Of a DNA stretch of 16,979 nt, positions 1 to 16,979 are shown piece by piece. The position numbers and the translations under genes are program-made. The stretch lies in the IMG/VR virus record IMGVR_UViG_2713896771_000020, positions 1 to 16,979 of that record. One strand, given 5' to 3'. The first letter of the stretch is position 1, and every line of letters starts with the position of its first letter. Source of the stretch: a virus. Its lineage: Duplodnaviria > Heunggongvirae > Uroviricota > Caudoviricetes. The notes beneath the pieces are model-generated. The model ran no database searches. It was not told the origin of the DNA and saw only the letters and a list, made by a program, of their open reading frames with translations.

Positions 1-309
1 CTAGTACTCAGGAAGATTTTCTAAATTATCCTTAGATGTACCATTGGCTCTAGTTGTAATGTAATCAATGTTGTTAACACGGTCTTTAACCACTTTTTGA
101 CCCTTCTTCCACTTACCGTCATCACCTATGAAAATGGTGTAAAACGTATAACCACTATCGATCTTATTCACTACCCACTGCCGTGTTTCTGATACCCCTC
201 CCCCAACAGTATCCCCCTTATCAACATGCACATACACATGGGTAATGTGAGTGTGCTTGTCGTTATATCGGACTTTAGAAATAAGGTAATCAGCCCATTT
301 ATCAATCAT
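1..309 (-). CDS. Hypothetical cargo protein, possibly DUF3892-like; ATG at 307-309 preferred, alternative TTG start at 361-363
   Basis: Complete ORF with stop at 1-3. GGTGG Shine-Dalgarno-like sequence just upstream of the ATG at 309. Motifs HTHITHV ... SGYTFYT ... NLENLPEY recalled as resembling DUF3892, tentative. About 35% GC by eye, well below the neighbouring terL. Confidence 0.45.
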   Translation of the reverse strand: MIDKWADYLISKVRYNDKHTHITHVYVHVDKGDTVGGGVSETRQWVVNKIDSGYTFYTIFIGDDGKWKKGQKVVKDRVNNIDYITTRANGTSKDNLENLPEY

Positions 310-458
310 ATTCCACCATAAGTTTGAACAGGAAAAGTCCTGCAATACTCTTATAAACAACAAAGCAGCGGCTTCCTACCCCACGATGGTAATATAGTGA
401 TCTAGAGCAATTTATATTTCCGATAACATCGACACAACTCCACATTTACACTCTATTC

Positions 459-2120
459 TCAAATTCCATTAAATAAAGCCAACCGTTCTTTGTGGCTGTC
501 GCTCATATCGAATGCAAATTCCTCATGCTCTGCCTGGAATGTGCCAAACGCCATCAGCGCCGCAACGCTCGGGTCTATCTTGTTGGATGATTTTTTCTTG
601 TTCGGCTTGATATTGGCGTTTGCGTCACTCTGCATCACAACATTACTCATTGACCAGGCCAGCACCGGATCACCACTATGCACAATCACCTTCCGGTTAA
701 CAAAAACCTCGAACGATTTCGCCGCCGGACTGAAACGAAGGTATGTTTGCGGGAACGGCTCCACCTCAAATCCTGCCCCCTGTAGCTGCGTCCTCAGGTG
801 TGTGGCGTTCCATGTATCGAAGCCCACCAGCCTGATATTGAAATTCTCTGCATCCGCCATGATGTCATCACGGATACGGTCATAATCAATGCAGTCACCC
901 GGTGTTGTGCGTATCCAGCCCGCCTTTACCCACTGGCGATAGATGGCGCGGTTTTTATTGGCGGGGTTCTGTAGCTGAAATTCCGGCAGATAGTGACGGG
1001 AAACCAGCATAATCTTTTTACCGACCGGAAAGGCATAGCACACGCTGGAAATATCGCTGGTTGATGATAAGTCCAGCCCCGCGTAGCACTCCTGCCCGTA
1101 TAAATCCGCCTCCGCGAACGTTCCGGCGCACTCCGCCCATGCACCGTTACCCATCCACGGCGTAGCCCCCTGACACCAGATATTGAATCGCTTGGTGAGC
1201 ATTTCCACCCACTGCGACGGAATACCCCGCGCTTTCTGGATGGTTGATGCCAGTTTTTCACGATCGACGGAAACATCGATATTGGGATTCGCCTTTATCC
1301 ACATCGCCGGATCGTCAACCTCGCTTTCATCATCCAGCTCGTAAATCAGCACGAACATGGATTCGTTCACCTCTTCACCATCCAGTATCTGGCAGCAATA
1401 GTCGTAGTGTTGTTTACAGGCTGAAACAACGTTGCTCCCCGATGTGGTGATGGCAAATAACAGCCCCTCCGGACGCGCCCCCATTCCCAGCTCAAGCGCG
1501 GAATAAACCCCGTTGTCAGGATGCAGGTGATATTCATCCACAATGGCAAGACTCGGGTTTGTACCTTCAATGGTTGCCGCTTTTGCTGCCAGTGGCTTTA
1601 ACAGGCTGTTGGTTTTCGGGTGTATCACCTTGTGTGCCTGAATATTTACCCGCTTTCGCAACGGTCGGGATAAAAGGCACATCTGACGCGCATCATCAAA
1701 CACGATCCGCGCCTGATCACGACTCACGGCGGCGGTGTAAATATCCTGCTGCCCGTTTTCCATAACCAGAAACCAGTTAGCCAGGATAGCGGCGACCGTG
1801 GATTTGGCATTTTTTCGCGGCACTTCAATGAATGCGCTGGTGTATTTGCGCCGTCCGGTGGCCTTAACCTTAAAGCCCAGGATGCACGCAAAGGCGAACT
1901 GCTGCCACGGCTCCAGCTCAATGGGGCTACCGCGCATTGCGCCTTTTACGTGCGGACACACCCTGGAAAAGGCAATAAACCGCTCCACGACCTCCGGATC
2001 GAACGTGTAAAGGGGGTTTTCAAGGTCAGAAAAATACCGTTTAACGGCCTGTTTCAGTCGTTTACAGGCCGTAATTTTGCCGTTTTTTACGCCTTCTGCG
2101 TACTCATGCCAGGCGGTCAA
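459..2120 (-). CDS. terL: Terminase large subunit
   Basis: 553-aa ORF with an ATPase P-loop region (EVPRKNAKST) and overall terminase-like length and layout. TTG start at 2118-2120 preceded by GAGGA, overlapping the terS stop by 17 nt. Confidence 0.85.
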   Translation of the reverse strand: MTAWHEYAEGVKNGKITACKRLKQAVKRYFSDLENPLYTFDPEVVERFIAFSRVCPHVKGAMRGSPIELEPWQQFAFACILGFKVKATGRRKYTSAFIEVPRKNAKSTVAAILANWFLVMENGQQDIYTAAVSRDQARIVFDDARQMCLLSRPLRKRVNIQAHKVIHPKTNSLLKPLAAKAATIEGTNPSLAIVDEYHLHPDNGVYSALELGMGARPEGLLFAITTSGSNVVSACKQHYDYCCQILDGEEVNESMFVLIYELDDESEVDDPAMWIKANPNIDVSVDREKLASTIQKARGIPSQWVEMLTKRFNIWCQGATPWMGNGAWAECAGTFAEADLYGQECYAGLDLSSTSDISSVCYAFPVGKKIMLVSRHYLPEFQLQNPANKNRAIYRQWVKAGWIRTTPGDCIDYDRIRDDIMADAENFNIRLVGFDTWNATHLRTQLQGAGFEVEPFPQTYLRFSPAAKSFEVFVNRKVIVHSGDPVLAWSMSNVVMQSDANANIKPNKKKSSNKIDPSVAALMAFGTFQAEHEEFAFDMSDSHKERLALFNGI

Positions 2121-2460
2121 GCTCGTCCTCTTCCTCTGTTTCCGGTGGATTTCTGCGGCGACTTACCGGGTCAAAACCCAGCAAAGAAGCCATTTTGATC
2201 ATTATTCTTTCAGCGTCAGCCTTTGCGCTCAGGGCGGGGTTTCTGCTCTCGCTGCCCTGACTGTTAACAATGCTGAACCCGCGCGTGGCAAGGTCTTCGA
2301 CGGCTTTGCGGTATATGGAGTAGTTAACGCAATACAGCTCCAGATTGCTCCAGTCGGCGGGGGTAAGGTCTTCCCGTCCGGAAAGCTGGCGCGATTTTTC
2401 CTTCCACTGCCTGACCGCGATTTCATCCAGGTAAGCGGGGGCTTTTGGTGGTCTTGCCAT
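2104..2460 (-). CDS. terS: Terminase small subunit (P27-like family)
   Basis: Start at ATG 2458-2460 (MARPPKAPAYLDE...). Size and motifs (LELYCVNYSIYRKA ... NPAL ... FGFDPVSRRR) typical of P27-type small terminases. Sits immediately upstream of and overlapping terL. Confidence 0.8.
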   Translation of the reverse strand: MARPPKAPAYLDEIAVRQWKEKSRQLSGREDLTPADWSNLELYCVNYSIYRKAVEDLATRGFSIVNSQGSESRNPALSAKADAERIMIKMASLLGFDPVSRRRNPPETEEEDELDRLA

Positions 2461-2582
2461 GTTCTTTTTTCGCCCAATTATTTTCAAAAAAATTCCCGTG
2501 CACAAAAATTTGAGGAGGCGTTCGGTGCCCGGCGGGGTCGGGTTTGTCCTGAAAACGCCCCCCACCCCGCCATACAGCCTCA

Positions 2583-2765
2583 TCAGCGATTGCGGAAACA
2601 TTCCATAACCTCGCGGTCACGGTCGGTTAATCGCTTCGCTGTGATGCGTTCTGCGCGTCCTGACGCTTTATCTTTATGCCCTGTTTCCTGTGTCTTCCAT
2701 GCGTCACGCTGCCTTATAAGTCCACGGATAAGGCGGTTTTGTTCCCGCTCATTCATCAGCGTCAT
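2583..2765 (-). CDS. Questionable small basic ORF (60 aa) in the HNH-terS spacer
   Basis: ATG at 2763-2765 and in-frame ORF, but no convincing Shine-Dalgarno and it overlaps the HNH 3' end. It may be non-coding and part of a cos or regulatory region. Confidence 0.2.
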   Translation of the reverse strand: MTLMNEREQNRLIRGLIRQRDAWKTQETGHKDKASGRAERITAKRLTDRDREVMECFRNR

Positions 2766-3189
2766 ACATCCAGTTATTGCGGTTAGCGGCCCGTTCTTCA
2801 TCTTCACGAAATCCACCTGCGGCACGCTTGCTTTTTGTTGCCGGATCAAGCCATTTCGTTTTCTGGTTATGACACGCCTGACACAATGGCTGATGGTTCC
2901 ATTCGGGCCAGAAGAGAACATCATCGCCGCCATCGATGGGGATAATGTGATCCACCACCACGGCGGGCGTATATATCCCCTTCTCAAGGCATCGCACGCA
3001 TAACGGGTTTTTACTCAGATACATGGCGCGGTATTTGTCCCACTGTCTGGAGTACCCACGCGCGCGGCGGTGTCCTCGTCTGGCATCCTCTGCACGCCAT
3101 GCCGCCCGCCTGTGCTCCTCACACTTACCGGACTTAACGCGCCTGTTACAGCCTGGTTCTGTACATCGTCTTAATGGTTGCCACGGCAT
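2749..3189 (-). CDS. HNH endonuclease (terminase-associated)
   Basis: Cys pairs and HNH core: CNRRVKSGKC ... CVRC ... VDHIIP ... WNHQPLCQACHNQKT. Located directly upstream of terS, as in HK97-like cos packaging modules. Confidence 0.9.
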   Translation of the reverse strand: MPWQPLRRCTEPGCNRRVKSGKCEEHRRAAWRAEDARRGHRRARGYSRQWDKYRAMYLSKNPLCVRCLEKGIYTPAVVVDHIIPIDGGDDVLFWPEWNHQPLCQACHNQKTKWLDPATKSKRAAGGFREDEERAANRNNWMYDADE

Positions 3190-3482
3190 CAGTACACCCC
3201 CACATCACGGTAAGCCGTCCAGAGTGCGCCTATCGTCATGGGTACGCGCGTTTTTGCGTTATCCGCGACAATCTGGCGATTTTCATACAGGTGAGCGATA
3301 AACATCATGCAGCCAATCTTTATGGCTGGCGTGAACTCCAGCCCGTCATCAAAGCGCCTGCCTATGTGTATCTGGCACGCCTCAAGCGATGCGGCAATGT
3401 ATCCGCTGATTAACTGGTCTTCATCGTCGCCATCGATGCGGCAATGGAGTTTCACTTCTTCCAGGGTGATAAGTTCTGTCAT
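3189..3482 (-). CDS. Head-tail connector protein (gp6-like)
   Basis: 97-aa protein MTELITLEEVKLHCRIDGDDEDQLI..., matching the characteristic N-terminus of gp6-type connectors. ATGA start/stop overlap with the upstream gene. Confidence 0.7.
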   Translation of the reverse strand: MTELITLEEVKLHCRIDGDDEDQLISGYIAASLEACQIHIGRRFDDGLEFTPAIKIGCMMFIAHLYENRQIVADNAKTRVPMTIGALWTAYRDVGVY

Positions 3483-3817
3483 TTTTCCGCGCCCTCACGA
3501 CAAAGAATTTCAAGGCGTGTCCTGGCGGCATCTGGCAGCGGTTGCCCGATGATATTCAGTACACGCCCCGCCAGCGGCCCCGTATTGACCTTTATCCGAC
3601 TGGTGGCGTTGATGTCCTTCCGGTAGCGTATCCATATCCTTACAGTTCCAGTCGCCAGCTCTGCACCTGATGAAATGGCCTCCTTGCTGCTGATCATGTT
3701 CACGCTTGCCCAGAGTGTGTGACCGTCCAGCCACGTTTCGAGTATTTCACCCGTCATGGCTCTGGTCTGTTTCAGGGTCTGAATCGTTACCCTGTCACGC
3801 AGTCGCCCTATGTTCAT
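3479..3817 (-). CDS. Head closure / head-tail adaptor protein
   Basis: MNIGRLRDRVTIQ ... TLWASV ... IRYRKDI ... pattern of head-closure proteins. ATG at 3815-3817 overlaps the portal stop (ATGA coupling). An upstream in-frame ATG at 3857-3859 is less likely. Confidence 0.65.
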   Translation of the reverse strand: MNIGRLRDRVTIQTLKQTRAMTGEILETWLDGHTLWASVNMISSKEAISSGAELATGTVRIWIRYRKDINATSRIKVNTGPLAGRVLNIIGQPLPDAARTRLEILCREGAEK

Positions 3818-5025
3818 TCCGGTTTTTCTCCCTCGCTGATTTTTACTTCCTGTTTCCATGCCTGGCTGAACTCATCACCACCATCACGCGGTGACAGTCC
3901 TTCACGTTCGCGGGCTTCGTTCGGACACATAACGCCGGATTTGATGCCGCGCTCATAGGTGGCAAAGCGTTCGCCAGGTGTGGCCCGTAACAGGTCCGCG
4001 CTGTCAAACTCCACCTGATACCGGATACCAGGTACAGGCGAGGCCACCAGCAGGGCGTTTTTTATCTGCTGCTCAAAGTTCGCCAGCCACGGGCGCATCG
4101 TCATGGTGAGAAATGCGCGGCTTGCCTCGCTGAAATTGCTGTAGGTGCTGTTGCTGTATTCCTGCAAAAAAATCGGCGAGACGTTGAACATTCTGGCGAT
4201 GTCTTCAATGGTGAAGCGACGGGAGGCCAGCCATTCAGCATCCTGATTACTCATGCCCAGCTGCTGATAGCTCATACCCCCTTCAAGGATGGGCGTTTTT
4301 CCGGCGTTTCTGGCCCCTTTGTAGCGTTCCAGTGCGGCTAATGCCTGTTTGCCCTTCACGCCGTCCAGCCATTCGCCTGACGTGATAACCCCTGCCGCCA
4401 TCATGCCATCACGCATCACGCTCGCGCCGTGGCGTTGTTGGGCCAGCCCAAGCCCCAGCGATTCGCGGCAGATGGTTACAGGTGAGCGCCCCATAAAACC
4501 GTCATCCGTGGAGTAACGAAGGTGGAGAACCTCCCACGGTAAATAGTTGCGGGTGTTTCCGGTGTAAGCGTCAGTGATGCAGTAGCGCCAGTTGTGTTCT
4601 CCTGTCTGCTCCATGTTCACCGACTGCGGCGGGTAAGGATGCAAAGCCGCCGGAAAACCATCACGCCCCCACTGAATCACCGCGTAAGCATTACCGTTTA
4701 ACAGGCAGTGGCGGATCATCATTCGCTTAAACTGGTAGGGAGTCTGCCACGCGTTCGGGCGCTCGTTGAGGATGTGATCGACCGGATGAGAATCAAGCCA
4801 CTCGCGGGCCTCCTTCCCCTTCTCATTGCGTACCAGGTACAGGTAACACGGCATGGTAGCCACCGCCTCAGAGATGACCGTCACGGCGTTCATGACGGCG
4901 GGCAGTGATTCCGCTGTCCCCGATGATACGTACTCACCCGCCCCCGTGTTCGATGTGCCAGCCAGCGCCATAAACTCATCAAGCGTCATGCTGCGCTGCT
5001 CTTTTTTTCTTCTGAAAGGCCACAT
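3814..5025 (-). CDS. Portal protein (HK97 family)
   Basis: 403-aa ORF with size and composition of HK97-type portals. GGGGG Shine-Dalgarno 6 nt upstream of ATG 5023-5025. Flanked by protease and adaptor genes. Confidence 0.85.
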   Translation of the reverse strand: MWPFRRKKEQRSMTLDEFMALAGTSNTGAGEYVSSGTAESLPAVMNAVTVISEAVATMPCYLYLVRNEKGKEAREWLDSHPVDHILNERPNAWQTPYQFKRMMIRHCLLNGNAYAVIQWGRDGFPAALHPYPPQSVNMEQTGEHNWRYCITDAYTGNTRNYLPWEVLHLRYSTDDGFMGRSPVTICRESLGLGLAQQRHGASVMRDGMMAAGVITSGEWLDGVKGKQALAALERYKGARNAGKTPILEGGMSYQQLGMSNQDAEWLASRRFTIEDIARMFNVSPIFLQEYSNSTYSNFSEASRAFLTMTMRPWLANFEQQIKNALLVASPVPGIRYQVEFDSADLLRATPGERFATYERGIKSGVMCPNEAREREGLSPRDGGDEFSQAWKQEVKISEGEKPE

Positions 5026-5026
5026 A

Positions 5027-5599
5027 TCACACCCCCGCTAAATCCGCCCACCAGCGGCGATTATCCGCACGCGGCATTTTTTCGGGGTGCTGCTCGTACA
5101 GGGAGCGGCGGGCCAGCTCCACGCCGGAATCAGGGTAAGCCGGTACGGATGTGACGGTAATTTCGTACAGTTCCGCAACCAGCACGGTGCGCACGCATGG
5201 ATCTGTTGTGGTATCCCATACATCCTTACGGGAACGAAAGCCAAAGCTCATGCCGGATATATCACCACGCTTAACCAGTTCGATAACGTCGCGCCCTGTA
5301 CTGGTATCCGGTGGGGTCAGTTCAAAGCGTAACCCTGTTTCATCCTCTTCCAGTTTCAGCGTGCCGGAACGGGTGCGCCCCAGTAACATACTGTGGTCAT
5401 GCTCATACAGGCCGCGAACGTCATTACCCGCCGCAAGCCATTCAGTAAACGCCCCCCGCTGGAATTTTTCGTAAAACTCACCCCATAACAGTTCTGAAAG
5501 CTTATCCCAGCGAACAACGTAGCCTGTAAGCGTGTTGCTGCCGCTGGTGGTGATTTCCGATGACCGGATTTCCATACTCTTCATAATTTTTTCACCCAT
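5027..5599 (-). CDS. Prohead maturation protease (HK97 family)
   Basis: 190-aa ORF; motif LYEHDHSMLLGRTRSGTL typical of HK97-type prohead proteases. Start among ATGs at 5597, 5582 or 5573 is uncertain. Confidence 0.8.
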   Translation of the reverse strand: MGEKIMKSMEIRSSEITTSGSNTLTGYVVRWDKLSELLWGEFYEKFQRGAFTEWLAAGNDVRGLYEHDHSMLLGRTRSGTLKLEEDETGLRFELTPPDTSTGRDVIELVKRGDISGMSFGFRSRKDVWDTTTDPCVRTVLVAELYEITVTSVPAYPDSGVELARRSLYEQHPEKMPRADNRRWWADLAGV

Positions 5600-5608
5600 A
5601 AAACACTA

Positions 5609-5628
5609 AAGGGGCTTTTAAGCCCCTT
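5609..5628 (-). terminator. Hairpin immediately after the major capsid gene (partial terminator or attenuator)
   Basis: 8-bp stem AAGGGGCT/AGCCCCTT with a 4-nt loop, followed on the minus strand by GUGUUUUAUGG. Lies between the capsid stop (5639) and the protease start. Confidence 0.5.
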
Positions 5629-5638
5629 CTGTATGCTG

Positions 5639-6796
5639 TTAATCGTCGTCCTGTGGCAGTTCCAGAATCTTGATCGCGTTCGAATCCACCACGCCACCGC
5701 CTAAATATTTCTGCGTGAAAATTTTGATGAAGCCCGGCTCTGTGAGGTTGTCCGGTCTGGTGCGAACACCTGTTTCGTGATCAACAATGTAGTAACCGCG
5801 TTTGAAGTCACCCAGGGCAATAACGTTATCAGGCATAAACTCCAGATATTCGACCGGAAGGCCCAGCAACGTATCAGGATCACCCGCCTGTAAACGGTCG
5901 CGCCAGATATAATCACCGTTCGCGTTCTTCACCTTCTGGAGTTTTGCCGCCGTCGTGGAGTTAACCACCCAGACCGCGTTTTTGCGGTATTTTTTACGTA
6001 ATGCAAATTTCAGGTCGATCAGCGGGTCCGCAGATGTCCACGCCAGAGATTCGGAAGGTTTAATTACCTGTAACGTACCAAAATCACGCTCTTTGTCGTT
6101 CTTCTCTGCACGGGGTACGGATAAAAAGCCTTTTGCTTTTTTGTCACCATCGCCCACAACCAGATCGCTTTCTTCGGTTTCCGTGAAGGTGTCGCCAATC
6201 TCACCCGTCAGCCATGAAAGGATGTCCACATCGGAAAAATCCACGATTTCCTGTGTGGTGCGCGGGTACGCATAGACCGGATACAGCTTAATGCTCACCT
6301 CGTTAATCTGCGGGGTGCTGGTCTGTTCGCGTGCCTTACCCTCTTCACCGTGGTTAACGGTCGCACCGCCAGCGGAAACAAGCTGCTTAAACTCGTTGCT
6401 GCTGATTTTCTTCACGGTACAGATGCGGCGCATGGTGGATTCATCCGCCAGCATTCGCATGATTTCGGTGTTCAGTTCAGGGATAACGGTATAACCACCA
6501 TCAGCGGGAACGCCTGTACTTAATGCGCGGGTTTCACCTGTCAGAATGTAGTTGCGGAGTTCTGCGGGGTCAGTGGTCTGACTGCTTTTACCTGGCTTGC
6601 TGCGCTCTTCGTCTGCAATGGCTTCAAGGCGGGAAATGTCTTTATCGAGGGATTCAGCTTTAGCGCGTAATTCGTCAAATGTTGCGCCCTCAGCATCGTT
6701 AAGACTGCGGTTTTCTTTTTCCGCGTTCTCCAGCATGTCGCGCATCTGATTTTTAATGGCGGTTTTCTGCTGGCGTAATTCGATTATTCTCGGCAT
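5639..6796 (-). CDS. Major capsid protein, HK97 fold, with N-terminal scaffold-like (delta) domain
   Basis: 385-aa ORF. N-terminal ~100 aa is charged and coiled-coil-like (ELRQQKTAIKNQMRDMLENAEKENRSL...), followed by a capsid-like body. Adjacent prohead protease. Confidence 0.88.
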   Translation of the reverse strand: MPRIIELRQQKTAIKNQMRDMLENAEKENRSLNDAEGATFDELRAKAESLDKDISRLEAIADEERSKPGKSSQTTDPAELRNYILTGETRALSTGVPADGGYTVIPELNTEIMRMLADESTMRRICTVKKISSNEFKQLVSAGGATVNHGEEGKAREQTSTPQINEVSIKLYPVYAYPRTTQEIVDFSDVDILSWLTGEIGDTFTETEESDLVVGDGDKKAKGFLSVPRAEKNDKERDFGTLQVIKPSESLAWTSADPLIDLKFALRKKYRKNAVWVVNSTTAAKLQKVKNANGDYIWRDRLQAGDPDTLLGLPVEYLEFMPDNVIALGDFKRGYYIVDHETGVRTRPDNLTEPGFIKIFTQKYLGGGVVDSNAIKILELPQDDD

Positions 6797-7050
6797 AAAA
6801 AAAGTCCTGGGGTTAAGTAAGGAACTCCAGGACGCGGCAAAAACTCAACCGTTTTTCATAAGGAAATCAGCAATCGCACCGATCGTTTTCCCGCCTGGTA
6901 ATGAATATTGGCGAGAACATTAACAGGCGGAAAAGTGGCCCCAGCGTCCTGGCACCACGGGCGAGAATAATCATGATTCAGTTCGGGTAAAATATGCCGA
7001 TCCTGTCAGTGAACAACGTGGAACAACCGCGAACAAATAATTTACAAAAA
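6797..7050 (-). promoter_or_regulatory. Leader and promoter region of the capsid/packaging operon
   Basis: 254-bp non-coding gap. Three 10-bp-phased TTGTTC repeats (7011-7036) lie upstream of a candidate -10 TATTTT (~6989-6994). Hairpin 6804-6833 followed by T7 abuts the capsid ATG. Confidence 0.5.
7011..7036 (-). repeat. Three direct repeats GAACAA (TTGTTC on the minus strand) at exact 10-bp spacing
   Basis: Plus strand reads GAACAAcgtgGAACAAccgcGAACAA at 7011-7016, 7021-7026 and 7031-7036. Confidence 0.9.
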
Positions 7051-7055
7051 ATGAC

Positions 7056-7083
7056 AAAAAGCCGGATTGCTCCGGCTGTATGC
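7056..7083 (-). terminator. Rho-independent terminator
   Basis: Stem GCCGGA/TCCGGC (7061-7066 and 7071-7076) with loop TTGC, followed on the minus strand by TTTTTGTCATTTTTT. Near-identical copy at 7408-7434. Confidence 0.75.
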
Positions 7084-7087
7084 GTGC

Positions 7088-7312
7088 TCAGTCCCTGATC
7101 CCTTTCAGAAATTCTATCAATGCATCTATCTGTTCAGGATTTACCGCCAGCATTTCACCGGACAGAGCACATCTCACAAAACCATGCTGATCCTTTTCAA
7201 TCAGTGCGCCCGTCTCCAGGAATGCGCGGTAATCATTGATGCTCATCGTCTCCATGTTGTCAGCATGGTATTTATCACGCTGTTTTAATATCTCATCAAA
7301 TTTCATCGGCAT
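7088..7312 (-). CDS. Hypothetical 74-aa protein in a moron-like cassette
   Basis: ATG at 7310-7312 with AGAGGA Shine-Dalgarno 8 nt upstream (MPMKFDEILKQRDKYH...). Bracketed by two near-identical intrinsic terminators. Confidence 0.55.
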   Translation of the reverse strand: MPMKFDEILKQRDKYHADNMETMSINDYRAFLETGALIEKDQHGFVRCALSGEMLAVNPEQIDALIEFLKGIRD

Positions 7313-7407
7313 TGTTTTTTCCTCTGTTGTGTCTGTTTGTTTCAGATAGTAACTATGCCTGACCGTGACGAAAACCCGGTAATGCGCCATACCGTTTCAA
7401 CTGGTGC

Positions 7408-7434
7408 AAAAAAAGCCGGATTTCTCCGGCTGTG
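7408..7434 (-). terminator. Rho-independent terminator (second copy of the same element)
   Basis: Stem GCCGGA/TCCGGC (7415-7420 and 7425-7430) with loop TTTC, followed on the minus strand by T7. Immediately after the stop of the 7438-7710 gene. Confidence 0.8.
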
Positions 7435-7437
7435 TGA

Positions 7438-7710
7438 TTAGCTGTCCTGGTAATTTCGCCATATTTCATCACCAGCACCATCCATACCCATTTCGGCATA
7501 AGTGCGATCGACCGCCTTTTTCAGGTCTCCGTAATTATCCGGCGGCTCCGGTGGCCTCTGTGCCTTCCTGGAACATTCCAGCCGTCGCATCGTAACCTGA
7601 TGCCGTTCCTTGTCTGTCTCCACCAGCAGCATGACTTCACCCCATCGCGCCGACGCCCTCCGGTAAAAGCCTTTTGCCTCGAGTTCCTCCGCTATGCGGT
7701 CATGTACCAT
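7438..7710 (-). CDS. Hypothetical 90-aa protein
   Basis: ATG at 7708-7710 with GAGGGGG Shine-Dalgarno, just downstream of the ssb stop. The longer ORF-track start overlaps ssb out of frame and is rejected. Confidence 0.5.
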   Translation of the reverse strand: MVHDRIAEELEAKGFYRRASARWGEVMLLVETDKERHQVTMRRLECSRKAQRPPEPPDNYGDLKKAVDRTYAEMGMDGAGDEIWRNYQDS

Positions 7711-7720
7711 CGTCACCCCC

Positions 7721-8131
7721 TCAGAACGGAATATCATCACCGTAGGGGTCATCGTCTCCCGCTGGTGGCTGATTACCCTGTGTGCCTGTGGTTTTGCGTC
7801 TGTTCCCGCCAGGACGTGCCGCACGGGCACTGATTACGCTGTCTGCAATAACCTGATACCCCTGCCGTGTTTCCCCGTTCTGTCCGGTCCACTGGCTTAC
7901 CTGCATCGTGCCGGATACGCTGGCAACATCGCCTTTTTGATGTTTAGCCAGGAAATCGGCCTGTTTGCCAAATGCGATAACCGATAACCATAACGTCGCC
8001 TGTCCGTCATGTGCCTGGCTGCATGGCAACGATACCGCCATACGCGCCAGAGTCATCGGTGTGCCCTTGCTGCTCTGTTTTACCAGCGGGTCGTCCACCA
8101 GGCGCCCGTAAGCTGCAATTTGTGCTGTCAT
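7721..8131 (-). CDS. ssb: Single-stranded DNA-binding protein with acidic C-terminal tip
   Basis: 136-aa ORF with SSB-like core (TLWLSVIAFGKQADFLAKHQKGDVASVSGTMQVSQW), Gly-rich linker and C-terminal DDDPYGDDIPF, the conserved SSB tail. GAGGTGG Shine-Dalgarno. Confidence 0.8.
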   Translation of the reverse strand: MTAQIAAYGRLVDDPLVKQSSKGTPMTLARMAVSLPCSQAHDGQATLWLSVIAFGKQADFLAKHQKGDVASVSGTMQVSQWTGQNGETRQGYQVIADSVISARAARPGGNRRKTTGTQGNQPPAGDDDPYGDDIPF

Positions 8132-8140
8132 ATTGCCACC

Positions 8141-8446
8141 TCAGTGAAGCGATCCGGCGTTGTTCTTTTTCATCTCTTCCATCATTTTTTCAGTGAGCAT
8201 TACGCACTGAAAACCCATGTTTTTGATGTCTACGGGTTTCATGCCTTTGTCAGTGGATATCACAGGCAGAATATCCTGATACACATCGCGGTCAGGGTAA
8301 CTAAGCACACAAAGCGCCCATGATGCCACGGGTGAGGATCCTTCGTCTGTTTCAACCCACCAGCCTGGTGTAGCTGCGCTTATTTGCAGAATCGTGATCA
8401 GTCCGTTGTGCTTGTAAAGTTTTTCACCAAATTTTGGTTCGCTCAT
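8141..8446 (-). CDS. Hypothetical 101-aa protein
   Basis: ATG 8444-8446 with GGAGAGGTGG Shine-Dalgarno. ATGA overlap with the upstream gene. No recognisable motif. Confidence 0.5.
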   Translation of the reverse strand: MSEPKFGEKLYKHNGLITILQISAATPGWWVETDEGSSPVASWALCVLSYPDRDVYQDILPVISTDKGMKPVDIKNMGFQCVMLTEKMMEEMKKNNAGSLH

Positions 8447-8694
8447 GATTCCACCTCTCCGGTTTTAACGTTGATGGTTGTTACCTGTTCCGCTTCGGCA
8501 ATCTCCCGTTCTGTCAGCGTGGCAAAGTTTGCCGCCGCCGTGGTCATGAATGCGCTTATCAGGTCGGGATGTTCCTTCGCGTATCCTTCCCGCGTGTGGC
8601 GGTCTATCGTTCTGATTGCCACCTTTAAGGTGTGCTCAGTCATGTCTAACGCTTTATATTTTGGCTCTGTTCTGTCTCTGCGTTTTTGGGTCAT
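8443..8694 (-). CDS. Hypothetical 83-aa protein (start uncertain: 8694, 8724 or 8643)
   Basis: In-frame ORF translationally coupled to the downstream gene. Its upstream region overlaps the iteron array. Confidence 0.4.
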   Translation of the reverse strand: MTQKRRDRTEPKYKALDMTEHTLKVAIRTIDRHTREGYAKEHPDLISAFMTTAAANFATLTEREIAEAEQVTTINVKTGEVES

Positions 8695-8703
8695 TTCTCG
8701 CAA

Positions 8704-8897
8704 CCTCTCACTTTTTCGCCTCACTTTTTCAAGCGTCTCACTTCGTCGCAGCTGGGATTTTCGGTTTTTCTATGTGTGTGTTTCATAAGTATTTTTTTAC
8801 CCCTCACTTTTGAGGATGTATACAGGTCGAAAAGTGAGGGAGAGCAGGCTAATTTTGGCCCTCTTTCTATCCACCTCGCTTTTGCTCCTCACTTTTA
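8704..8897. repeat. Iteron array, putative replication origin of the island
   Basis: CTCACTTTT-type repeats at 8707, 8720, 8737 (degenerate), 8803, 8874 (degenerate) and 8888, plus one inverted copy AAAAGTGAG at 8830-8838. Adjacent AT-rich tract 8783-8800. Lies immediately 3' of the replicase gene. Confidence 0.65.
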
Positions 8898-10295
8898 TAG
8901 CGGCGCTACATCATCCCCATCGATACGAATAACCCCATCTTTTTCCAGCTTGTACAGCCAGCGCCGGAAGTTTTTCATTTCATACCCCAGCTTTTTCATG
9001 TCATCACGTAACAGCGGGATCGTGCACTTGTCGCCGTTCTGTGTGCGTGAACGGATGCACCCCCATAAAGCGGTATGGTTTTCCGTCTTGTTCCCGGCCT
9101 CCTCGATGCGCTCCAGTTCAACAGGAGGGCGCGGATCATCCACCACCACCAGCGACGTGATTAATTCACCGTCAGCGTCGGTAAAAAGCTCCACCACGCG
9201 TAAGTCATATGCGGCTTCTTTGAGTTCCTCCGCGTCCTTCATTTTGGTGCATGAGATAACCAGCGCTTCGCTTCCTGCGTCCTCCCTGCGTATCCGGTAT
9301 TCAGCATCCAGCGAAGCACGAAATGCACTGGAACCGCGCGCGCCTTTCGTCTCATCCTTGCCGGAATGGTGAACCACCAGCACCGTGGCCCCTGTGCGTC
9401 GTTTCAGTTCGTCACAACCACGGATAAACGCCCCCATATCACGGGAATCATTTTCATCATTCCCACCAAAGCAACGCGCCAGCGTATCCAGAATAATCAT
9501 GCGAACAGGTTTACCCGTTTCCCGCTCCACCTGACGGGCAGCGATAACCATTTCATCAACATCAAGCGGGGCAGCCGGAAAGATGGGGCGGTTTACCAGA
9601 TACAGATTTTTCACCTGCTCATCGTGCACAACCTCCCAGGCTTTTACACGACGCGGAACACCTATACCGCCTTCACCAACCACATAGAGAACCGCACCAT
9701 GCGCAACCCTGCGGCCTCCCCACTGGCGACCAGTGGCAACATGGCACGCCCACGATCCGGCAAGGAATGATTTATAGGACCCGCTAGCCCCGTATATGCT
9801 GCATAGCGATACCGCCGGAATAATCCCCTTAACCACGTAATCCAGTTGCGTGTCGTATCCGGTAGATCCAACGCTCATCGGTAGCGTGGTTTTTCGCTGG
9901 TGGTTTTTTTCTTCCGCCGGCTCTTTCCCACGCACCCGTTCCAGGTATTCGCGCCAGTTCTCCCGCATATGGCTGTGCATCCCTTCGGGGTAATAATTCG
10001 CATCAGTTACACCCGCCGCCGCCAGCTTGTGCGCAATGGCATTAATATTTGATGGCCTGATGTGGCCTGCCTTGTACAGCCGGACACAATAGCGCCCCTC
10101 GTCGATGATTCTCAGGTCTGCCAGTTCATCCAGTTGATCATCAGCCAGCACAACGGGAGGCACATTATCGCCAGCCAGTCGCCCGTCCTGTTCCTGCCAC
10201 TGTTTCGCATGTGCCCAGGCATCACTACCCGCAAAAATAATGACTTCGGTCATCTTGTCGTAAGGCTGTTTTTTTAAGTTCGGTGCGCTTTTCAT
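8895..10295 (-). CDS. Primase/replicase-type replication initiator with RecA-like (RepA/AAA_25-type) ATPase domain
   Basis: 466-aa ORF. P-loop-like YGASGSYKS, Walker B MIILDTL, and VVHHSGKD motif typical of RepA-like helicase loaders. ATGA coupling to the upstream gene. Confidence 0.75.
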   Translation of the reverse strand: MKSAPNLKKQPYDKMTEVIIFAGSDAWAHAKQWQEQDGRLAGDNVPPVVLADDQLDELADLRIIDEGRYCVRLYKAGHIRPSNINAIAHKLAAAGVTDANYYPEGMHSHMRENWREYLERVRGKEPAEEKNHQRKTTLPMSVGSTGYDTQLDYVVKGIIPAVSLCSIYGASGSYKSFLAGSWACHVATGRQWGGRRVAHGAVLYVVGEGGIGVPRRVKAWEVVHDEQVKNLYLVNRPIFPAAPLDVDEMVIAARQVERETGKPVRMIILDTLARCFGGNDENDSRDMGAFIRGCDELKRRTGATVLVVHHSGKDETKGARGSSAFRASLDAEYRIRREDAGSEALVISCTKMKDAEELKEAAYDLRVVELFTDADGELITSLVVVDDPRPPVELERIEEAGNKTENHTALWGCIRSRTQNGDKCTIPLLRDDMKKLGYEMKNFRRWLYKLEKDGVIRIDGDDVAPL

Positions 10296-10591
10296 TTCTT
10301 GCCCCTGAATACGTTAAGCATCTTTTTTATTTCCTGAATATTGGCGCGTGCTTTCTCCCTGCTGGTTGGTTTACTGCGGGGCGCTGCCTGTACCAGAGAA
10401 AAATCACGCCGGAACTGATAAACAGGCATCACGCAGTCATATTCGTAGCCTTCACGGCGGTAGGTAATGCGTCGCTCTTCTACACCTTTAATCGTTACGG
10501 TGCCGCCGTACTGGTCGCGGTAAATATCGCCGCGCGTAAATTTAGGGTGAGTGTTGCCACTGGCAGTTAAGCCAGAATATTTAAGTTTCAT
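10292..10591 (-). CDS. Hypothetical 99-aa protein
   Basis: ATG 10589-10591; intact ORF in the same operon directly upstream of the replicase. Confidence 0.5.
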   Translation of the reverse strand: MKLKYSGLTASGNTHPKFTRGDIYRDQYGGTVTIKGVEERRITYRREGYEYDCVMPVYQFRRDFSLVQAAPRSKPTSREKARANIQEIKKMLNVFRGKK

Positions 10592-10596
10592 TATTT

Positions 10597-10830
10597 TTAT
10601 TCTCCGGTGTGCTGTTCTTTATATCTGTCGTGCAATATATCTATTTCTTGCAGTTCCATTATTACAGGATCAAGAAGCGTTATTAATGCCGTGGCAATTC
10701 TTGATTTTTGTTTGTCGCGTTCATTGTCGCCAAGTGTTTCAAGCCATATGCGCAATATTTCCAGCATGTTTTCACTGTGAGAAAGTGCAAGAAATGCGCG
10801 GTCTATTGTTTGGTGGTAAATATCACGCAT
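10597..10830 (-). CDS. Hypothetical 77-aa protein, AT-rich gene
   Basis: ATG 10828-10830 with GAGGA Shine-Dalgarno. Local GC visibly lower than flanking genes. Confidence 0.5.
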   Translation of the reverse strand: MRDIYHQTIDRAFLALSHSENMLEILRIWLETLGDNERDKQKSRIATALITLLDPVIMELQEIDILHDRYKEQHTGE

Positions 10831-11272
10831 GGCTTACATCCTCAGGAAATTTTCTTCTATAACGCGCCTCTGCCACATATTCCGCATAATCGGCGGCGAT
10901 ATTCAGTACATCAAGCCCCGTTGATTTATATTCTCTCGTGGAAAGTAAGAAAAAAGCCGCTCTAATAAGTTCTGGCATTGACGAAAGCGCATCAGCCGCA
11001 TCATCAGGAACGCCGGAAAATTCCTGTTTCAGGGAATTAAAACGATCATCACGCATAACCCCCCCCCCATTTTCACAATCAGCAACAAGAATATTTTTAG
11101 CGTCATTCAGCGACCGCGTTGCGGTGTATCGGATACATTCCAGGGCGAATAGTGTGTATTCTTCCCTTTCTTCCTTTTGTGCAAGCTCTGCTGTGCATTC
11201 AATATCAATAAGCGCGTGCATCAGCGTAGTGAGTGCGGCGGCGGCTGCGTCCGGTGTGGTTTTATTGCACAT
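10823..11272 (-). CDS. Hypothetical 149-aa protein containing a G10 homopolymer tract
   Basis: ATG 11270-11272 with GGAGGGG Shine-Dalgarno. The coding strand carries GGGGGGGGGG (plus-strand C10 at 11059-11068) encoding ENGGGV. Confidence 0.5.
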   Translation of the reverse strand: MCNKTTPDAAAAALTTLMHALIDIECTAELAQKEEREEYTLFALECIRYTATRSLNDAKNILVADCENGGGVMRDDRFNSLKQEFSGVPDDAADALSSMPELIRAAFFLLSTREYKSTGLDVLNIAADYAEYVAEARYRRKFPEDVSHA

Positions 11273-11492
11273 GTACCCCTCCGCATTTTTTTTCGTTAGA
11301 AATAAGCGTTCTTCTTTCCTGTTCATCGATCAGGAATACGCAGACCTCACCGCTAAGGCGTTTAAGTAAGCCGATGATTGCCCCTGATTCGCTGTCGGTC
11401 ATCATGCCTGGGTAATCCTCTGCCAGTGCGCAAATAACTTCGATTTGGTGGGCGCGTTCTACTGCCTGTTGTAGTGTGATTTCCTGGCTCAT
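11262..11492 (-). CDS. Hypothetical 76-aa acidic protein
   Basis: ATG 11490-11492 overlapping the stop of the upstream gene (ATGA). No recognisable motif. Confidence 0.5.
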   Translation of the reverse strand: MSQEITLQQAVERAHQIEVICALAEDYPGMMTDSESGAIIGLLKRLSGEVCVFLIDEQERRTLISNEKKCGGVHVQ

Positions 11493-11689
11493 AAGCCTAC
11501 CCCCTGACGAATACGGGCAGCGAATACCATCACGCAGCCAGCCGGGGATTGCAGGCGTGCTTCCTGTTCGCTGGTGGCCTCAATGGTAATCACGCGCGGT
11601 TGTGCAGTGCTCAGGGCGATAAAACGCCAAATGTATTTATTCAGGTTGTGCGAGTCCCGCCCTTGCGGGTGTGTGGTATGATTTCTCAT
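11489..11689 (-). CDS. Hypothetical 66-aa protein, first gene of the leftward early operon
   Basis: ATG 11687-11689 with GAGGT Shine-Dalgarno (MRNHTTHPQGRDSHNLNKYIWRF...). The ORF-track 381-aa extension upstream is non-coding promoter sequence. Confidence 0.5.
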   Translation of the reverse strand: MRNHTTHPQGRDSHNLNKYIWRFIALSTAQPRVITIEATSEQEARLQSPAGCVMVFAARIRQGVGL

Positions 11690-11885
11690 AGCTACCTCGA
11701 TACTCTCGTTATCGTTGGTGGTTAGAAGCCCCGTTACTGCTCCTACAGTGCGGGGTTTCGTCGTTTCTGCACCTTGCATTAACAAGGTGTAAGTAACTTT
11801 ATTTATAGGTGGCTTACATGTCAATGCTTTTATGTAAGACTTTTTATGTGTATATTGTCTTACACTTTCATTGAGAGGATTACAG
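11690..11885. promoter_or_regulatory. Divergent promoter/operator switch region
   Basis: Minus-strand promoter: perfect -35 TTGACA (11819-11824), 17-nt spacer, -10 TAAAGT (11796-11801). Plus-strand candidate -10 TATATT (11851-11856). Inverted repeats CTTACAT/ATGTAAG (11814-11820 and 11833-11839), TGTAAGAC/GTCTTACA (11834-11841 and 11858-11865), CACCTTG-N6-CAAGGTG (11770-11789). Confidence 0.6.
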
Positions 11886-12191
11886 ATGGCTACAGGTTCA
11901 AAAAACGCAAAATCACAATCACTGACAGCTCGGATCCCGCATGATGTTATTGAAGGCATGGAATCCGTAAAACTGGACGGTGAAAGCAACGCCGGATTCA
12001 TAGTAACCGCCATGCGCGGTGAAATCGCCCGCCGCCAGGCAGAAGGAAGCGGAGAAAACCTCCTGATTTCTTCGCTCAATGCACTGGCGCAGGTGGAAAA
12101 ACTCGGAATCAAAGCCGCCGAGGAGATCGGGCAGCTCGTCACTGTCGCACGTGAAGAACTCCAGCGCCGCAAGACTAAAGAACCAGAGTAA
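11886..12191 (+). CDS. Small ribbon-helix-helix-like DNA-binding protein, candidate island repressor
   Basis: ATG 11886 with GAGAGGA Shine-Dalgarno. N-terminal beta-strand/helix pattern SLTARIPHDVIEGMESVKLDGESNAGFIVTAMRGEIARRQ resembles Arc/CopG-type folds. Divergent from the early operon. Confidence 0.5.
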   Translation: MATGSKNAKSQSLTARIPHDVIEGMESVKLDGESNAGFIVTAMRGEIARRQAEGSGENLLISSLNALAQVEKLGIKAAEEIGQLVTVAREELQRRKTKEPE

Positions 12192-12248
12192 TCACCATCA
12201 GCGCCGTGGTGTAAGGTATTACGGCGCATTGCTATGCAGGACAACACA

Positions 12249-12422
12249 ATGACCGATAAAGAATTGACCAAAACATTATCACCGGCACGGAAAAGACGGC
12301 GCAGAAAGATAGAGCATGAATCAGAAAGATTCGCGCCATGTGCTTTTGCCCTTGAGCAATTCCTTAAAGAGTACAGGGAAAAGCGCTCATTGCAGGTATG
12401 GCAACGAACTGAACCAGACTGA
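12249..12422 (+). CDS. Hypothetical 57-aa basic protein
   Basis: ATG 12249 with AGGA Shine-Dalgarno 7 nt upstream (MTDKELTKTLSPARKRRRRK...). Second gene of the short plus-strand operon. Confidence 0.4.
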   Translation: MTDKELTKTLSPARKRRRRKIEHESERFAPCAFALEQFLKEYREKRSLQVWQRTEPD

Positions 12423-12517
12423 TTGCATTGCCCACCAGCCTGATAGCGGCTATCATCCCCGTGCTTATGTTTGGGATCACATACACAAACGGCGCAGCGG
12501 GTTATCTGTTCAGAAAG

Positions 12518-12545
12518 GCGGCTCCATTTCGGGGCCGCTTTTTTT
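12518..12545 (+). terminator. Rho-independent terminator of the plus-strand regulator operon
   Basis: 8-bp stem GCGGCTCC/GGGGCCGC with one G-U pair and loop ATTTC, followed by T7. A second AU-rich hairpin CTGAAAAAC/GTTTTTCAG lies at 12550-12579. Confidence 0.7.
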
Positions 12546-12691
12546 ATACCTGAAAAACCCCAATTTTGTTGTTTTTCAGTTTCACCAGGGCGAACGAATC
12601 CCCGCCCACGTTCTGGCGTATATTCAATCTTCATGGTTATGGCTCTGTGTTCAGATGATTGATGTGTGGCGGCTGCGTGCCGCCAGCGTGA

Positions 12692-12880
12692 TTAATGAAC
12701 TGCCTTGCAGCTATCCTTCCAGGCCAGAACCTCGGATAAAGACCAGCCAACGGAACGACCGCCAAGTTTACGACGTGATGGGAATTGTCCGGCCTTTTCC
12801 AGGCGGTAGCGGCATGAGCGGCTAAGGCCTGTTAGCTTTTCGCATTCTTTTTCACGTATAAACCGATCAGTGCTTAACAC
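12692..12880 (-). CDS. alpA: AlpA-family (excisionase-like) transcriptional regulator
   Basis: 62-aa protein; core LTGLSRSCRYRLEKAGQFPSRRKLGGRSVGWSLSEVLAWKDS matches the AlpA/Xis-like winged-helix signature. GTG start with GGGGG Shine-Dalgarno. Immediately downstream of int in the same orientation. Confidence 0.85.
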   Translation of the reverse strand: MLSTDRFIREKECEKLTGLSRSCRYRLEKAGQFPSRRKLGGRSVGWSLSEVLAWKDSCKAVH

Positions 12881-13163
12881 TATTGCCCCCTTTCGTTTCT
12901 TAAAGAGTTATTTCGTGTTCTATTGCGTTGGGATGTGTCTGATTGTGTCAGGATGATTCAGAGTTGGCAAATGTTGAGGCCGTATGGTTTACAGAAAGAG
13001 GAATAATCAGGATAAAATCATTTAAATTCATGTTAATACAAAGGCATAAAATATTGTTTCATGCCTTTTTTCTCGCTATTTAAAGAGTGATTCGCTAGTG
13101 TATAAAAAACCAGTAACACATTAAAAATCAGCTACTTATAAATCTGTACACTTTTTCGCCTCT

Positions 13164-13208
13164 TGTTCGTAGTTGTTCCGCATTGTTGCTCATTGTTGCA
13201 CGTTGTAT
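13164..13208 (+). repeat. Four to five direct repeats TTGTT(C/G) at 10-bp spacing
   Basis: TTGTTC at 13164 and 13174, TTGTTG at 13184 and 13194, degenerate TTGTAT at 13203. Same motif and phasing as the arrays at 7011-7036 and 14539-14574. Confidence 0.85.
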
Positions 13209-13221
13209 CTGTTCGCATATC

Positions 13222-13237
13222 CAGTATGCGCATACTG
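13222..13237. promoter_or_regulatory. Perfect 16-bp palindrome CAGTATGCGCATACTG
   Basis: Exact dyad symmetry directly adjacent to the repeat array, in the int-alpA intergenic region. No flanking U-run, so a protein site is more likely than a terminator. Confidence 0.5.
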
Positions 13238-13254
13238 AAAAAATACGAAAAAAA

Positions 13255-14484: not shown

Positions 14485-14507
14485 GTTTTACCCCCTCTTT
14501 ACGAAAA

Positions 14508-14531
14508 AGTGACTACACCAGTGACTACACC
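14508..14531. repeat. Perfect tandem 12-bp direct repeat AGTGACTACACC x2 in the int promoter region
   Basis: Copies at 14508-14519 and 14520-14531, about 25 bp upstream of the int start codon. Confidence 0.9.
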
Positions 14532-14538
14532 GATCGTT

Positions 14539-14574
14539 GCACAAAGGGCTACAACGTGAAACAAGCTGGAACAA
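14539..14574 (-). repeat. Four 10-bp-phased TTGT repeats upstream of int
   Basis: Plus strand has ACAA at 14541, 14551, 14561 and 14571. Minus strand reads TTGTTC, TTGTTT, TTGTAG, TTGTGC at exact 10-bp intervals. Confidence 0.8.
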
Positions 14575-14660
14575 GGAAAATCACAAATCTGTTGATAATC
14601 AAAAACATAATGCACAGCCTGAAACATTATGAAACAGCAAAAAACACTAAATGATAAAAT

Positions 14661-15566
14661 GCTGTTATTCTTAACCCGCTGGTGCAACACATGGTCCGCT
14701 GGCGAGTGCCGCGTGTACTGGCGGTGTCGATTTTGATGACCATCATCGTGATGGCGATGGTGTTGCTATTAGCTTATCTGGGTTCCGCGCTCAACGAGTT
14801 GACGCGGACGTTACCGCAATATCGCAACTCTATTATGACGCCGCTGCAAGCTCTTGAGCCGTTGTTGCAACGCGTAGGGATTGACGTCTCAGTTGACCAG
14901 CTGGCGCATTACATTGATCCGAACGCGGCGATGACGTTGCTCACCAACTTATTGACGCAGTTATCTAATGCCATGTCATCAATATTTTTATTGCTGCTGA
15001 CGGTGCTGTTTATGCTGCTCGAAGTGCCACAATTGCCCGGAAAATTTCAGCAAATGATGGCGCGTCCGGTTGAAGGGATGGCGGCGATTCAACGTGCAAT
15101 TGACAGTGTTTCTCATTATCTGGTGCTGAAAACAGCCATCAGCATCATCACCGGCCTGGTCGCCTGGGCGATGCTCGCCGCACTCGATGTTCGCTTCGCT
15201 TTTGTCTGGGGATTGCTGGCCTTTGCGCTTAATTACATCCCTAATATTGGTTCAGTTCTCGCGGCAATCCCCCCTATCGCTCAGGTACTGGTGTTTAATG
15301 GCTTCTACGAAGCGTTGCTGGTGCTGGCGGGATATCTGCTGATTAATCTGGTCTTCGGCAATATTCTGGAGCCGCGCATCATGGGACGTGGGCTGGGGCT
15401 TTCCACATTGGTGGTATTTTTGTCGTTGATTTTTTGGGGATGGTTGTTAGGACCGGTGGGTATGCTGCTTTCCGTGCCGTTAACAATTATTGTCAAAATT
15501 GCGCTTGAACAAACAGCGGGAGGTCAAAGCATCGCCGTTCTGTTAAGCGATCTCAATAAAGAGTGG
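14661..15566 (+). pseudogene. tqsA: 5'-truncated tqsA (AI-2 exporter, AI-2E family), disrupted by the island
   Basis: Translation from 14661 reads [22 protein letters not shown]... through the conserved AI-2E transporter body. An in-frame stop at 14652-14654 and AT-rich island DNA lie immediately upstream, so the N-terminal transmembrane segment and promoter are absent. 3' limit set by the expected stop near 15564, which is TGG in this sequence. Confidence 0.7.
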
Positions 15567-15584: not shown

Positions 15585-15590
15585 TCAGGG

Positions 15591-16979
<1,389 letters not shown>

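Follow-up and report, generated by a model that had tools for sequence, protein, structure and literature searches.

The DNA analysed here, called the window throughout, is a 16,979-nt stretch of IMG/VR virus record IMGVR_UViG_2713896771_000020. Its positions 459-6796 hold a nine-gene packaging operon that we assign to a capsid-forming phage-inducible chromosomal island (cf-PICI) of the type of EcCIEDL933, the prototype from E. coli O157:H7 EDL933, integrated in tqsA of an Escherichia-type chromosome; we put the probability of this reading at roughly 93%. All packaging genes lie on the minus strand, with transcription running from 6796 to 459 in the order capsid, S78 protease, portal, head closure protein (Hc1), head-tail adaptor (Ad1), HNH endonuclease, a 60-aa open reading frame (ORF), small terminase (TerS) and large terminase (TerL). 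Families were assigned with Pfam (matches above cut-offs) and with PHROGs, and both give the same functions. In order of transcription, the features of the operon and its upstream leader are:

6804-6958, minus strand: structured 5' leader with three helices, P1 (6935-6958), P2 (6886-6934) and P3 (6804-6833)
5639-6796, minus strand: major capsid protein (HK97 fold), the first gene; Phage_capsid PF05065, 208.7 bits against a cut-off of 24.2
5608-5629, minus strand: terminator-like hairpin in the 39-nt capsid-protease spacer, with a 9-bp stem GAAGGGGCT/AGCCCCTTT
5027-5599, minus strand: prohead serine protease S78; Peptidase_S78 PF04586, 164 bits; phrog_80
3814-5025, minus strand: portal protein; Phage_portal PF04860, 303 bits; phrog_12
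3479-3817 (ORF extendable to 3859), minus strand: head closure protein Hc1, HK97 gp7-like; Phage_HCP PF05521, 80 bits; phrog_25
3189-3482, minus strand: head-tail adaptor Ad1, HK97 gp6-like; Phage_connect_1 PF05135, 46 bits; phrog_40
2749-3189, minus strand: HNH endonuclease (packaging accessory, HK97 gp74-like); PF01844, 35 bits; phrog_144
2583-2765, minus strand: small basic ORF of 60 aa, the ninth gene, from its translation and tblastn in relatives
2461-2582, minus strand: conserved non-coding block between the 60-aa ORF and TerS, putative cos
2104-2460, minus strand: small terminase (P27/Terminase_4); Terminase_4 PF05119, 82 bits
459-2120, minus strand: large terminase, the last gene; TerL_ATPase PF03354 and TerL_nuclease PF20441; phrog_9, 606 bits

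An earlier note on this DNA had listed eight genes from capsid to TerL in this order. That order is right: all eight assignments lie above the Pfam cut-offs with PHROGs in agreement, and the check by hidden Markov models, which the note had named as a possible refutation of its capsid, portal and terminase calls, failed none of them. What the list had missed is the ninth gene at 2583-2765 and the probable cos site at 2461-2582. The 60-aa ORF has no family match; it is conserved in 72 related loci (tblastn E < 1e-3), always between HNH and TerS, and probably corresponds to the hypothetical gene 1792 of EcCIEDL933, mutation of which severely reduces island transfer (Alqurainy et al. 2022).

The starts used for Hc1 (3817) and TerS (2460, giving 357 nt) are those of the RefSeq annotation of a 98.5%-identical island in E. 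coli strain JB2; the TerS start is also backed by alignment, and a longer ORF to 2601 crosses the conserved non-coding cos block. From the coordinates, protease and portal are separated by 1 nt, portal/Hc1 and Hc1/Ad1 overlap by 4 nt each, Ad1/HNH by 1 nt, and HNH/small ORF and TerS/TerL by 17 nt each, leaving the 39-nt capsid-protease spacer and the cos spacer as the only non-coding gaps in the module.

The identity of the element follows most directly from its capsid protein, of which 382 of 385 residues are identical to PDB 9GYI, the T=4 capsid of EcCIEDL933 (He et al. 2025). The next-best solved relative by sequence is the capsid of the Rhodobacter capsulatus gene transfer agent (6TB9, E = 9e-47), and HK97 gp5 was not recovered with the window capsid at E <= 1e-3 in the same sequence search of solved structures. 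EcCIEDL933 has the same nine-gene module in the same order, on an int/alpA/rep/PerC backbone, in an island of ~15 kb. The backbone of the present island includes:

13255-14484: tyrosine integrase, next to truncated tqsA and pntB
12692-12880: AlpA-like excisionase/regulator (phrog_2790)
8895-10295: RepA/AAA_25 helicase

An SSB gene and a PerC-family gene are also present, and the integrase, AlpA regulation and replication modules are of PICI type, as in other cf-PICIs. The insertion site is tqsA, adjoining pntB, with a truncated tqsA beside the integrase. The host DNA is of Escherichia type, nearly every complete E. coli genome matching the pntB end of the window; at least 80% of the window is covered in 172 genomes, the best being strain JB2 (98.5% over 492-16979). 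About 14.5 kb of the island lies inside the window, from its first base to the att region by int, the left end lying outside; the JB2 island spans ~15.2 kb between two tqsA fragments, the size given for cf-PICIs being ~10-18 kb. Scans of 20 ORFs with Pfam or PHROGs gave no tail or lysis family, and beyond TerL the JB2 island has one 282-nt hypothetical gene only; on these two grounds we take the present island to lack tail and lysis genes.

The island is nonetheless a different copy from EcCIEDL933, with its best complete-genome match in JB2, a TerS-TerL pair from another cf-PICI lineage and, beyond TerL, an accessory gene at 1-363 (DUF3892, phrog_32719). Positions 1-491 have no match to JB2-type islands, consistent with published descriptions of the flanks of the packaging operon as variable accessory slots. 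Classical Gram-negative PICIs such as EcCICFT073 and EcCIED1a share int, alpA and rep (Alqurainy et al.), with PerC-like genes common, but have no capsid or terminase genes and redirect helper packaging with Rpp (Alqurainy et al.).

Nothing we found contradicts the cf-PICI assignment, though several points qualify it. A scan of the minus strand found no sigma-70 consensus in 6797-7087 and no promoter in 1-8000, and the promoter of the operon could not be placed. The cos ends are drawn from assembly breaks and homology, the ~15.2 kb size and the absence of tail genes are in part taken from the JB2 island because the left end lies outside the window, and the compatibility of TerS-TerL with head genes of a different cf-PICI lineage is assumed.

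In the annotated HK97 record, the left end reads TerS, TerL, portal, protease, capsid, Ad1 (gp6), Hc1 (gp7) and tail genes, with the HNH gene at the right end, so that HNH, cos and TerS are adjacent in the circular form; the canonical order given in the earlier note is therefore correct. HK97 and HK106 share with the island the families of HK97-fold capsid, S78 protease, portal, gp6-like, gp7-like and gp74-like HNH proteins, P27-type TerS and TerL, and the island keeps the HNH-cos-TerS-TerL adjacency of HK97. Its head genes, however, lie upstream of HNH, whereas those of HK97 lie downstream of TerL. The two orders differ, as had been claimed, but by more than had been stated, for two internal orders are reversed as well, without a change of strand: the island has capsid-protease-portal where HK97 has portal-protease-capsid, and Hc1-Ad1 where HK97 has Ad1-Hc1. 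A single transposition would not turn the HK97 order into that of the island; several independent ones are needed. The EcCIEDL933 prototype has a T=4 capsid vs T=7 in HK97, and the island has no tail or lysis genes; with this order and gene content the element differs from an HK97-like temperate siphophage (prophage), in which tail genes come after the adaptors and the lysis cassette sits upstream of HNH/cos.

The capsid-first order is nevertheless already known. Alqurainy et al. (2022) describe exactly this order, ending hnh-terS-terL, for the Proteobacterial cf-PICIs, and note that the modules of PICI and helper HK106 have "different genetic organisations"; He et al. (2025) used the capsid-first order as a search criterion for cf-PICIs. 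The suggestion of a family signature is borne out by our synteny survey, but what it rediscovers is a published hallmark that is part of the definition of the family.

The survey drew on two sets of loci. The first comprised 80 loci found by capsid alignment in contigs of one genome per species, from Enterobacterales, Pasteurellales and Orbales, with capsid identities of 56-99%. In every locus of sufficient length the genes follow the same one-strand order; all eight were detected in 42 loci, and in 22 more only Hc1 escaped detection, being too diverged there for tblastn. The second comprised 80 IMG/VR loci chosen solely by a 25-nt non-coding motif from leader helix P1. In all 78 loci that extend past the motif, a cf-PICI-type capsid gene (58-76% identity) lies 120-146 nt downstream, and the genes detected beyond it all keep the same order; as a search key for cf-PICIs in viral metagenomes, the motif gave no false context in the 78 checkable cases. 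Over both sets, ~140 loci in the three bacterial orders, the gene order has no exception.

In a phage collection, capsid identities of at least 58% occur only in satellite-sized or chimeric records, all of them capsid-first (vB_KppS-Ant, the tail of P12620-1, a 3.8-kb Salmonella fragment and Pasteurella Pmp8), while no true phage there exceeds 40%. Pseudomonas phage VW-6S, the closest true phage by its capsid (37%), has the canonical order, and portal precedes capsid in about ten true phages at 33-37% capsid identity (ST64B, SfI, SfII, SfIV, YeP1-3, As1, three vB_EcoM phages and S.Typ Adana). For TerL the corresponding values are 70-83% to satellite-sized records vs <=37% to phages. These identity gaps would set capsid and terminase apart from their phage homologues, as in other cf-PICIs; no satellite-phage intermediates appear among the capsid homologues listed, all of which are at least 66% identical.

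Several of these records bear on how such islands are catalogued. The stretch 90271-106503 of Klebsiella phage P12620-1 (PQ569648.1, 106.5 kb; our locus L005) is a complete cf-PICI genome in what is probably a chimeric assembly, and vB_KppS-Ant (16.5 kb) and Pasteurella Pmp8 (15.3 kb) are, from their cf-PICI gene order, cf-PICI-like elements that entered the databases as phages. The same is probable for Pmp7 (10.7 kb), from its size and 70%-identical TerL only. The accessions of this group besides PQ569648.1 are LR881103.1, OR544139.1 and OR544138.1.

The arrangement of the packaging module around cos can be read from the same relatives. A block of ~120 nt is conserved across Enterobacterales, Pasteurellales and Orbales with the pattern GGGGTGGGGG..TTTCAGGACAAA...TCAAATTTTTACGCACGG..ATTTTTTTGAAAATA, at the position of the HK97 cos, between HNH and TerS. 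In the record of vB_KppS-Ant, TerS-TerL stand at one end and the genes from capsid to HNH and the small ORF at the other, with the break inside this block, and the last 16 kb of P12620-1 have the same layout and the same break; between the vB_KppS-Ant ends ~75 nt of the relatives are missing, and we used them only as evidence that the break falls in the spacer. Taken together with its conservation, this suggests that cos probably lies at ~2461-2582, between the small ORF and TerS. With cos inside it, the operon would be transcribed across cos, like the late operon of HK97. In one relative, from Shigella flexneri SFBU1023 (L006), the first 20 nt of TerS and the TerS-proximal part of the putative cos block are lost in a 90-bp deletion with 7-nt microhomology (window 2441-2530), and this island copy is probably immobilised.

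The cos spacer also divides the module into two blocks of different history. From the small ORF through the leader (2583-7059), the window is 100% DNA-identical to the JB2 island, while TerS and TerL (459-2460) are 88% and 90% nucleotide-identical to it. Three IMG/VR loci (L107, L149 and L162) have the converse pattern, with TerS-TerL 98-99.7% identical and head genes only 65-82%. The alignments show recombination among cf-PICIs with a breakpoint in the cos spacer, the module being a mosaic of two blocks; we speculate that the breakpoint may arise by joining of the cohesive ends of two co-packaged lineages.

We take the order itself to be a fixed ancestral arrangement of the Proteobacterial cf-PICI lineage, a lineage marker and not a locus-specific adaptation. 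According to one account, it is a frozen accident: a rearranged module fixed in the founder of the lineage and kept, without selective advantage, by tight gene coupling and block exchange. Firmicutes cf-PICIs, with the same gene content and lifestyle (Alqurainy et al.), form two further groups, one in Bacillus, Clostridium and Staphylococcus and the other in Lactococcus and Enterococcus, with orders that place portal-protease-capsid or HNH-TerS-TerL first and with independent origins (Alqurainy et al. 2022), so that three independent cf-PICI groups have three orders. In the Proteobacterial group no other order occurs in ~140 loci with capsid identities as low as 56%, the overlapping and abutting junctions would make further shuffling costly, and recombination is seen only at the cos spacer and around the connector genes (the latter from He et al. 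2025). On the other hand, at least 2-3 separate strand-keeping transpositions lie between the HK97 order and that of the island, which is much for a neutral change, and the conservation of the post-capsid hairpin and the leader suggests selection on capsid-gene expression. We consider this account to have somewhat less than an even chance of being right.

The hairpin behind the capsid gene had been proposed in the earlier note as an attenuator favouring capsid protein over terminase, and the element itself is real. It reads GAAGGGGCT-TAAA-AGCCCCTTT at 5629-5608, followed by the tail AGTGTTTTAT, and folds at -17.3 kcal/mol with a z-score of -3.5. Counting any stem of 6 bp or more that includes 4 or more G-C pairs, an equivalent hairpin is found at 104 of 116 distinct capsid 3' junctions of relatives, 88 of these with a T-rich tail. 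The junctions after protease, portal, Ad1 and HNH have one in 0-6% of cases; after TerS the figure is 20%, and no T-rich tail occurs there. The G-C core persists among relatives through changes in loop and stem length, and in Pasteurellaceae the tails are T6-T8. Such conservation among relatives marks the hairpin as a selected feature. In HK97, a putative terminator is annotated at the same place after gp5 (5192-5213; -26.6 kcal/mol, z = -4.2), and VW-6S likewise has a hairpin after its capsid gene; in both phages the terminase genes lie upstream of capsid, so the hairpin accompanies capsid genes of the HK97 type in general and did not result from the permuted order, which it predates. Its effect, however, would depend on the order: in the permuted module it would lower transcription of all other operon genes, in the canonical one that of connector and tail genes only.

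The spacer just 3' of this hairpin is an insertion site in some relatives. A Testudinibacter locus (L057) has a 264-aa ORF there, at 11226-12020, with a weak Lambda_tail_I match below the cut-off (E = 0.0013); an IMG/VR locus (L100) has a homing-endonuclease-like gene with HNH_3 and AP2 domains at 1610-2155; and two others (L136 and L166) have a similar extra length of ~540 nt.

An attenuator role favouring capsid is plausible from the sequence. Extended from the earlier note, it gives a reading in which the order would have been selected for an expression gradient: capsid first, then a partial terminator, then the low-copy portal, connector and terminase proteins. The T=4 particle is built from ~235 capsid subunits and 12 portal subunits, with terminase needed in catalytic amounts. 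The gene order roughly tracks this fall in copy number, and the hairpin, conserved and specific to the capsid 3' junction as the counts above show, occupies the sole real spacer within the head block. Against selection of the order itself stand the same kind of hairpin in HK97 and VW-6S, with their terminase genes upstream, and the Firmicutes cf-PICIs, which work with portal-first or terminase-first orders, so that capsid-first is not required for the lifestyle. In addition, the U-tract of the window (TTTAGTGTTTT) is interrupted, which suggests partial termination at most, and the hairpin could instead stabilise the 3' end of an mRNA. We regard the gradient as a possible reason for the order, yet less likely than not.

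Upstream of the capsid gene, the leader was analysed with RNAalifold on an alignment of 15 Enterobacterales leaders. The consensus has 30 predicted pairs, of which 18 show compensatory double changes; pairing holds in 92% of cells vs ~40% in slid controls, and none of 500 shuffles reaches the observed covariation score. The leader of the window differs from the consensus in all three helices, yet adopts the same fold (single-sequence z = -4.95), as does that of vB_KppS-Ant. G.U cells number 18 vs 4 A.C cells, an excess that favours an RNA on the sense strand. Rfam gave no match, either at the gathering threshold over the whole window or at E <= 1 within 2400-7500. The 3' arm of P3 covers an AGGA that resembles a Shine-Dalgarno sequence, and in the window a run of seven U follows P3 directly before the ATG.

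Farther upstream on the minus strand, two near-identical strong terminators at 7414-7431 and 7060-7077, AGCCGGAG(A/C)AATCCGGCT followed by a T-run, bracket a small ORF at 7088-7312 (phrog_1957) that lies between the PerC-family gene and the capsid leader; the arrangement at 7060-7431 looks like an inserted gene cassette with a duplicated terminator.

It is conceivable, if in our judgement rather doubtful, that the leader of ~160 nt, the post-capsid hairpin and the capsid-first order together form a dedicated control unit for the capsid gene. Such a unit, in the Proteobacterial cf-PICIs, may set the stoichiometry of capsid to accessory proteins, or may tie head-gene expression to a factor from the helper or the island, with antitermination and translational unmasking as examples of how this could work. 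We found no description of either the leader or the hairpin in the cf-PICI literature we consulted.

Under the cf-PICI assignment, the working of the operon can be sketched from the prototype. In EcCIEDL933, capsid, protease, portal, connectors, HNH, TerS and TerL are each needed for island transfer, which is abolished when any one of them is mutated (Alqurainy et al. 2022), and the island makes its own T=4 HK97-fold capsids while the helper HK106 supplies only tails (Alqurainy et al. 2022; He et al. 2025). By near-identity to EcCIEDL933, helper induction, small self-made capsids and dependence on helper tails would carry over to the present island. Judged by its 99% capsid identity and the shared architecture, it would build T=4 HK97-fold capsids of its own with capsid, protease and portal, and helper tails would dock through the head closure and adaptor proteins, as published swaps of tail specificity suggest. 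HNH, TerS and TerL would cut the island's own cos at ~2461-2582, and the packaged linear DNA would have TerS-TerL at one end and capsid through HNH at the other. As to expression, the capsid gene appears to stand alone behind the structured leader and before the terminator-like hairpin; protease through small ORF, and TerS-TerL, would form two chains of abutting or overlapping, translationally coupled genes. From the sequence, such an arrangement would allow a high output of capsid and a lower one of the genes downstream.

The remaining accounts of the order and of the region fare much worse. It had been proposed that the permuted order avoids recombination with helper phages; what speaks for this is the general idea that exchange between non-collinear modules gives non-viable recombinants. 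At the nucleotide level, however, the module shares with HK97 a single 84-nt stretch at 71% identity. The encoded proteins are 25% (portal), 28% (TerL), 41% (HNH) and 49% (Hc1) identical to those of HK97, and for the other four (capsid, protease, Ad1 and TerS) tblastn against HK97 found no match; the closest phage homologues of capsid and TerL reach 40% and 37% identity at most. With nucleotide similarity to HK97 nearly absent, homologous recombination is precluded whatever the order and a barrier is unnecessary; the proposal is not borne out, and we hold it to be highly improbable. The value of 49% for Hc1 fits its role in contact with the borrowed tail, a role inferred from He et al. (2025). 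The last account, a decayed HK97-like prophage that has lost its tail and lysis genes, can claim the missing tail genes and homologues with names such as "capsid protein of prophage CP-933C" (a Xenorhabdus homologue), a sign that homologues may formerly have been annotated as cryptic prophage, but is refuted for the prototype by published genetics, in which the island is mobilised experimentally and makes its own capsids, and can practically be dismissed here given the same compact architecture, size and intact ORFs in ~140 loci from three orders of Gammaproteobacteria and the presence of PICI-type int, alpA and rep.

Two further observations concern the island backbone and the prototype. On the minus strand at 11489-12634, the window has an intact 381-aa ORF whose C-terminal ~90 residues match phage transcriptional-repressor families (phrog_6196); its counterpart in the JB2 island is annotated as a short Icd-like gene and an Icd-like pseudogene. 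In EDL933, the region 1.70-1.75 Mb, a position guessed from the name "gene 1786", yielded a lambda-like prophage only.

The cf-PICIs move DNA between species by means of self-made capsids and borrowed phage tails, and the copy described here is a further example, with tqsA as its integration site. From the gene order itself there is nothing new to learn. The by-products of the analysis may be useful for work on cf-PICIs, namely a family-wide post-capsid hairpin shared with HK97, a covarying leader, and a two-block module that recombines at cos; if the control unit suggested above is real, the leader would be a new class of cis-regulatory RNA specific to cf-PICI satellites.

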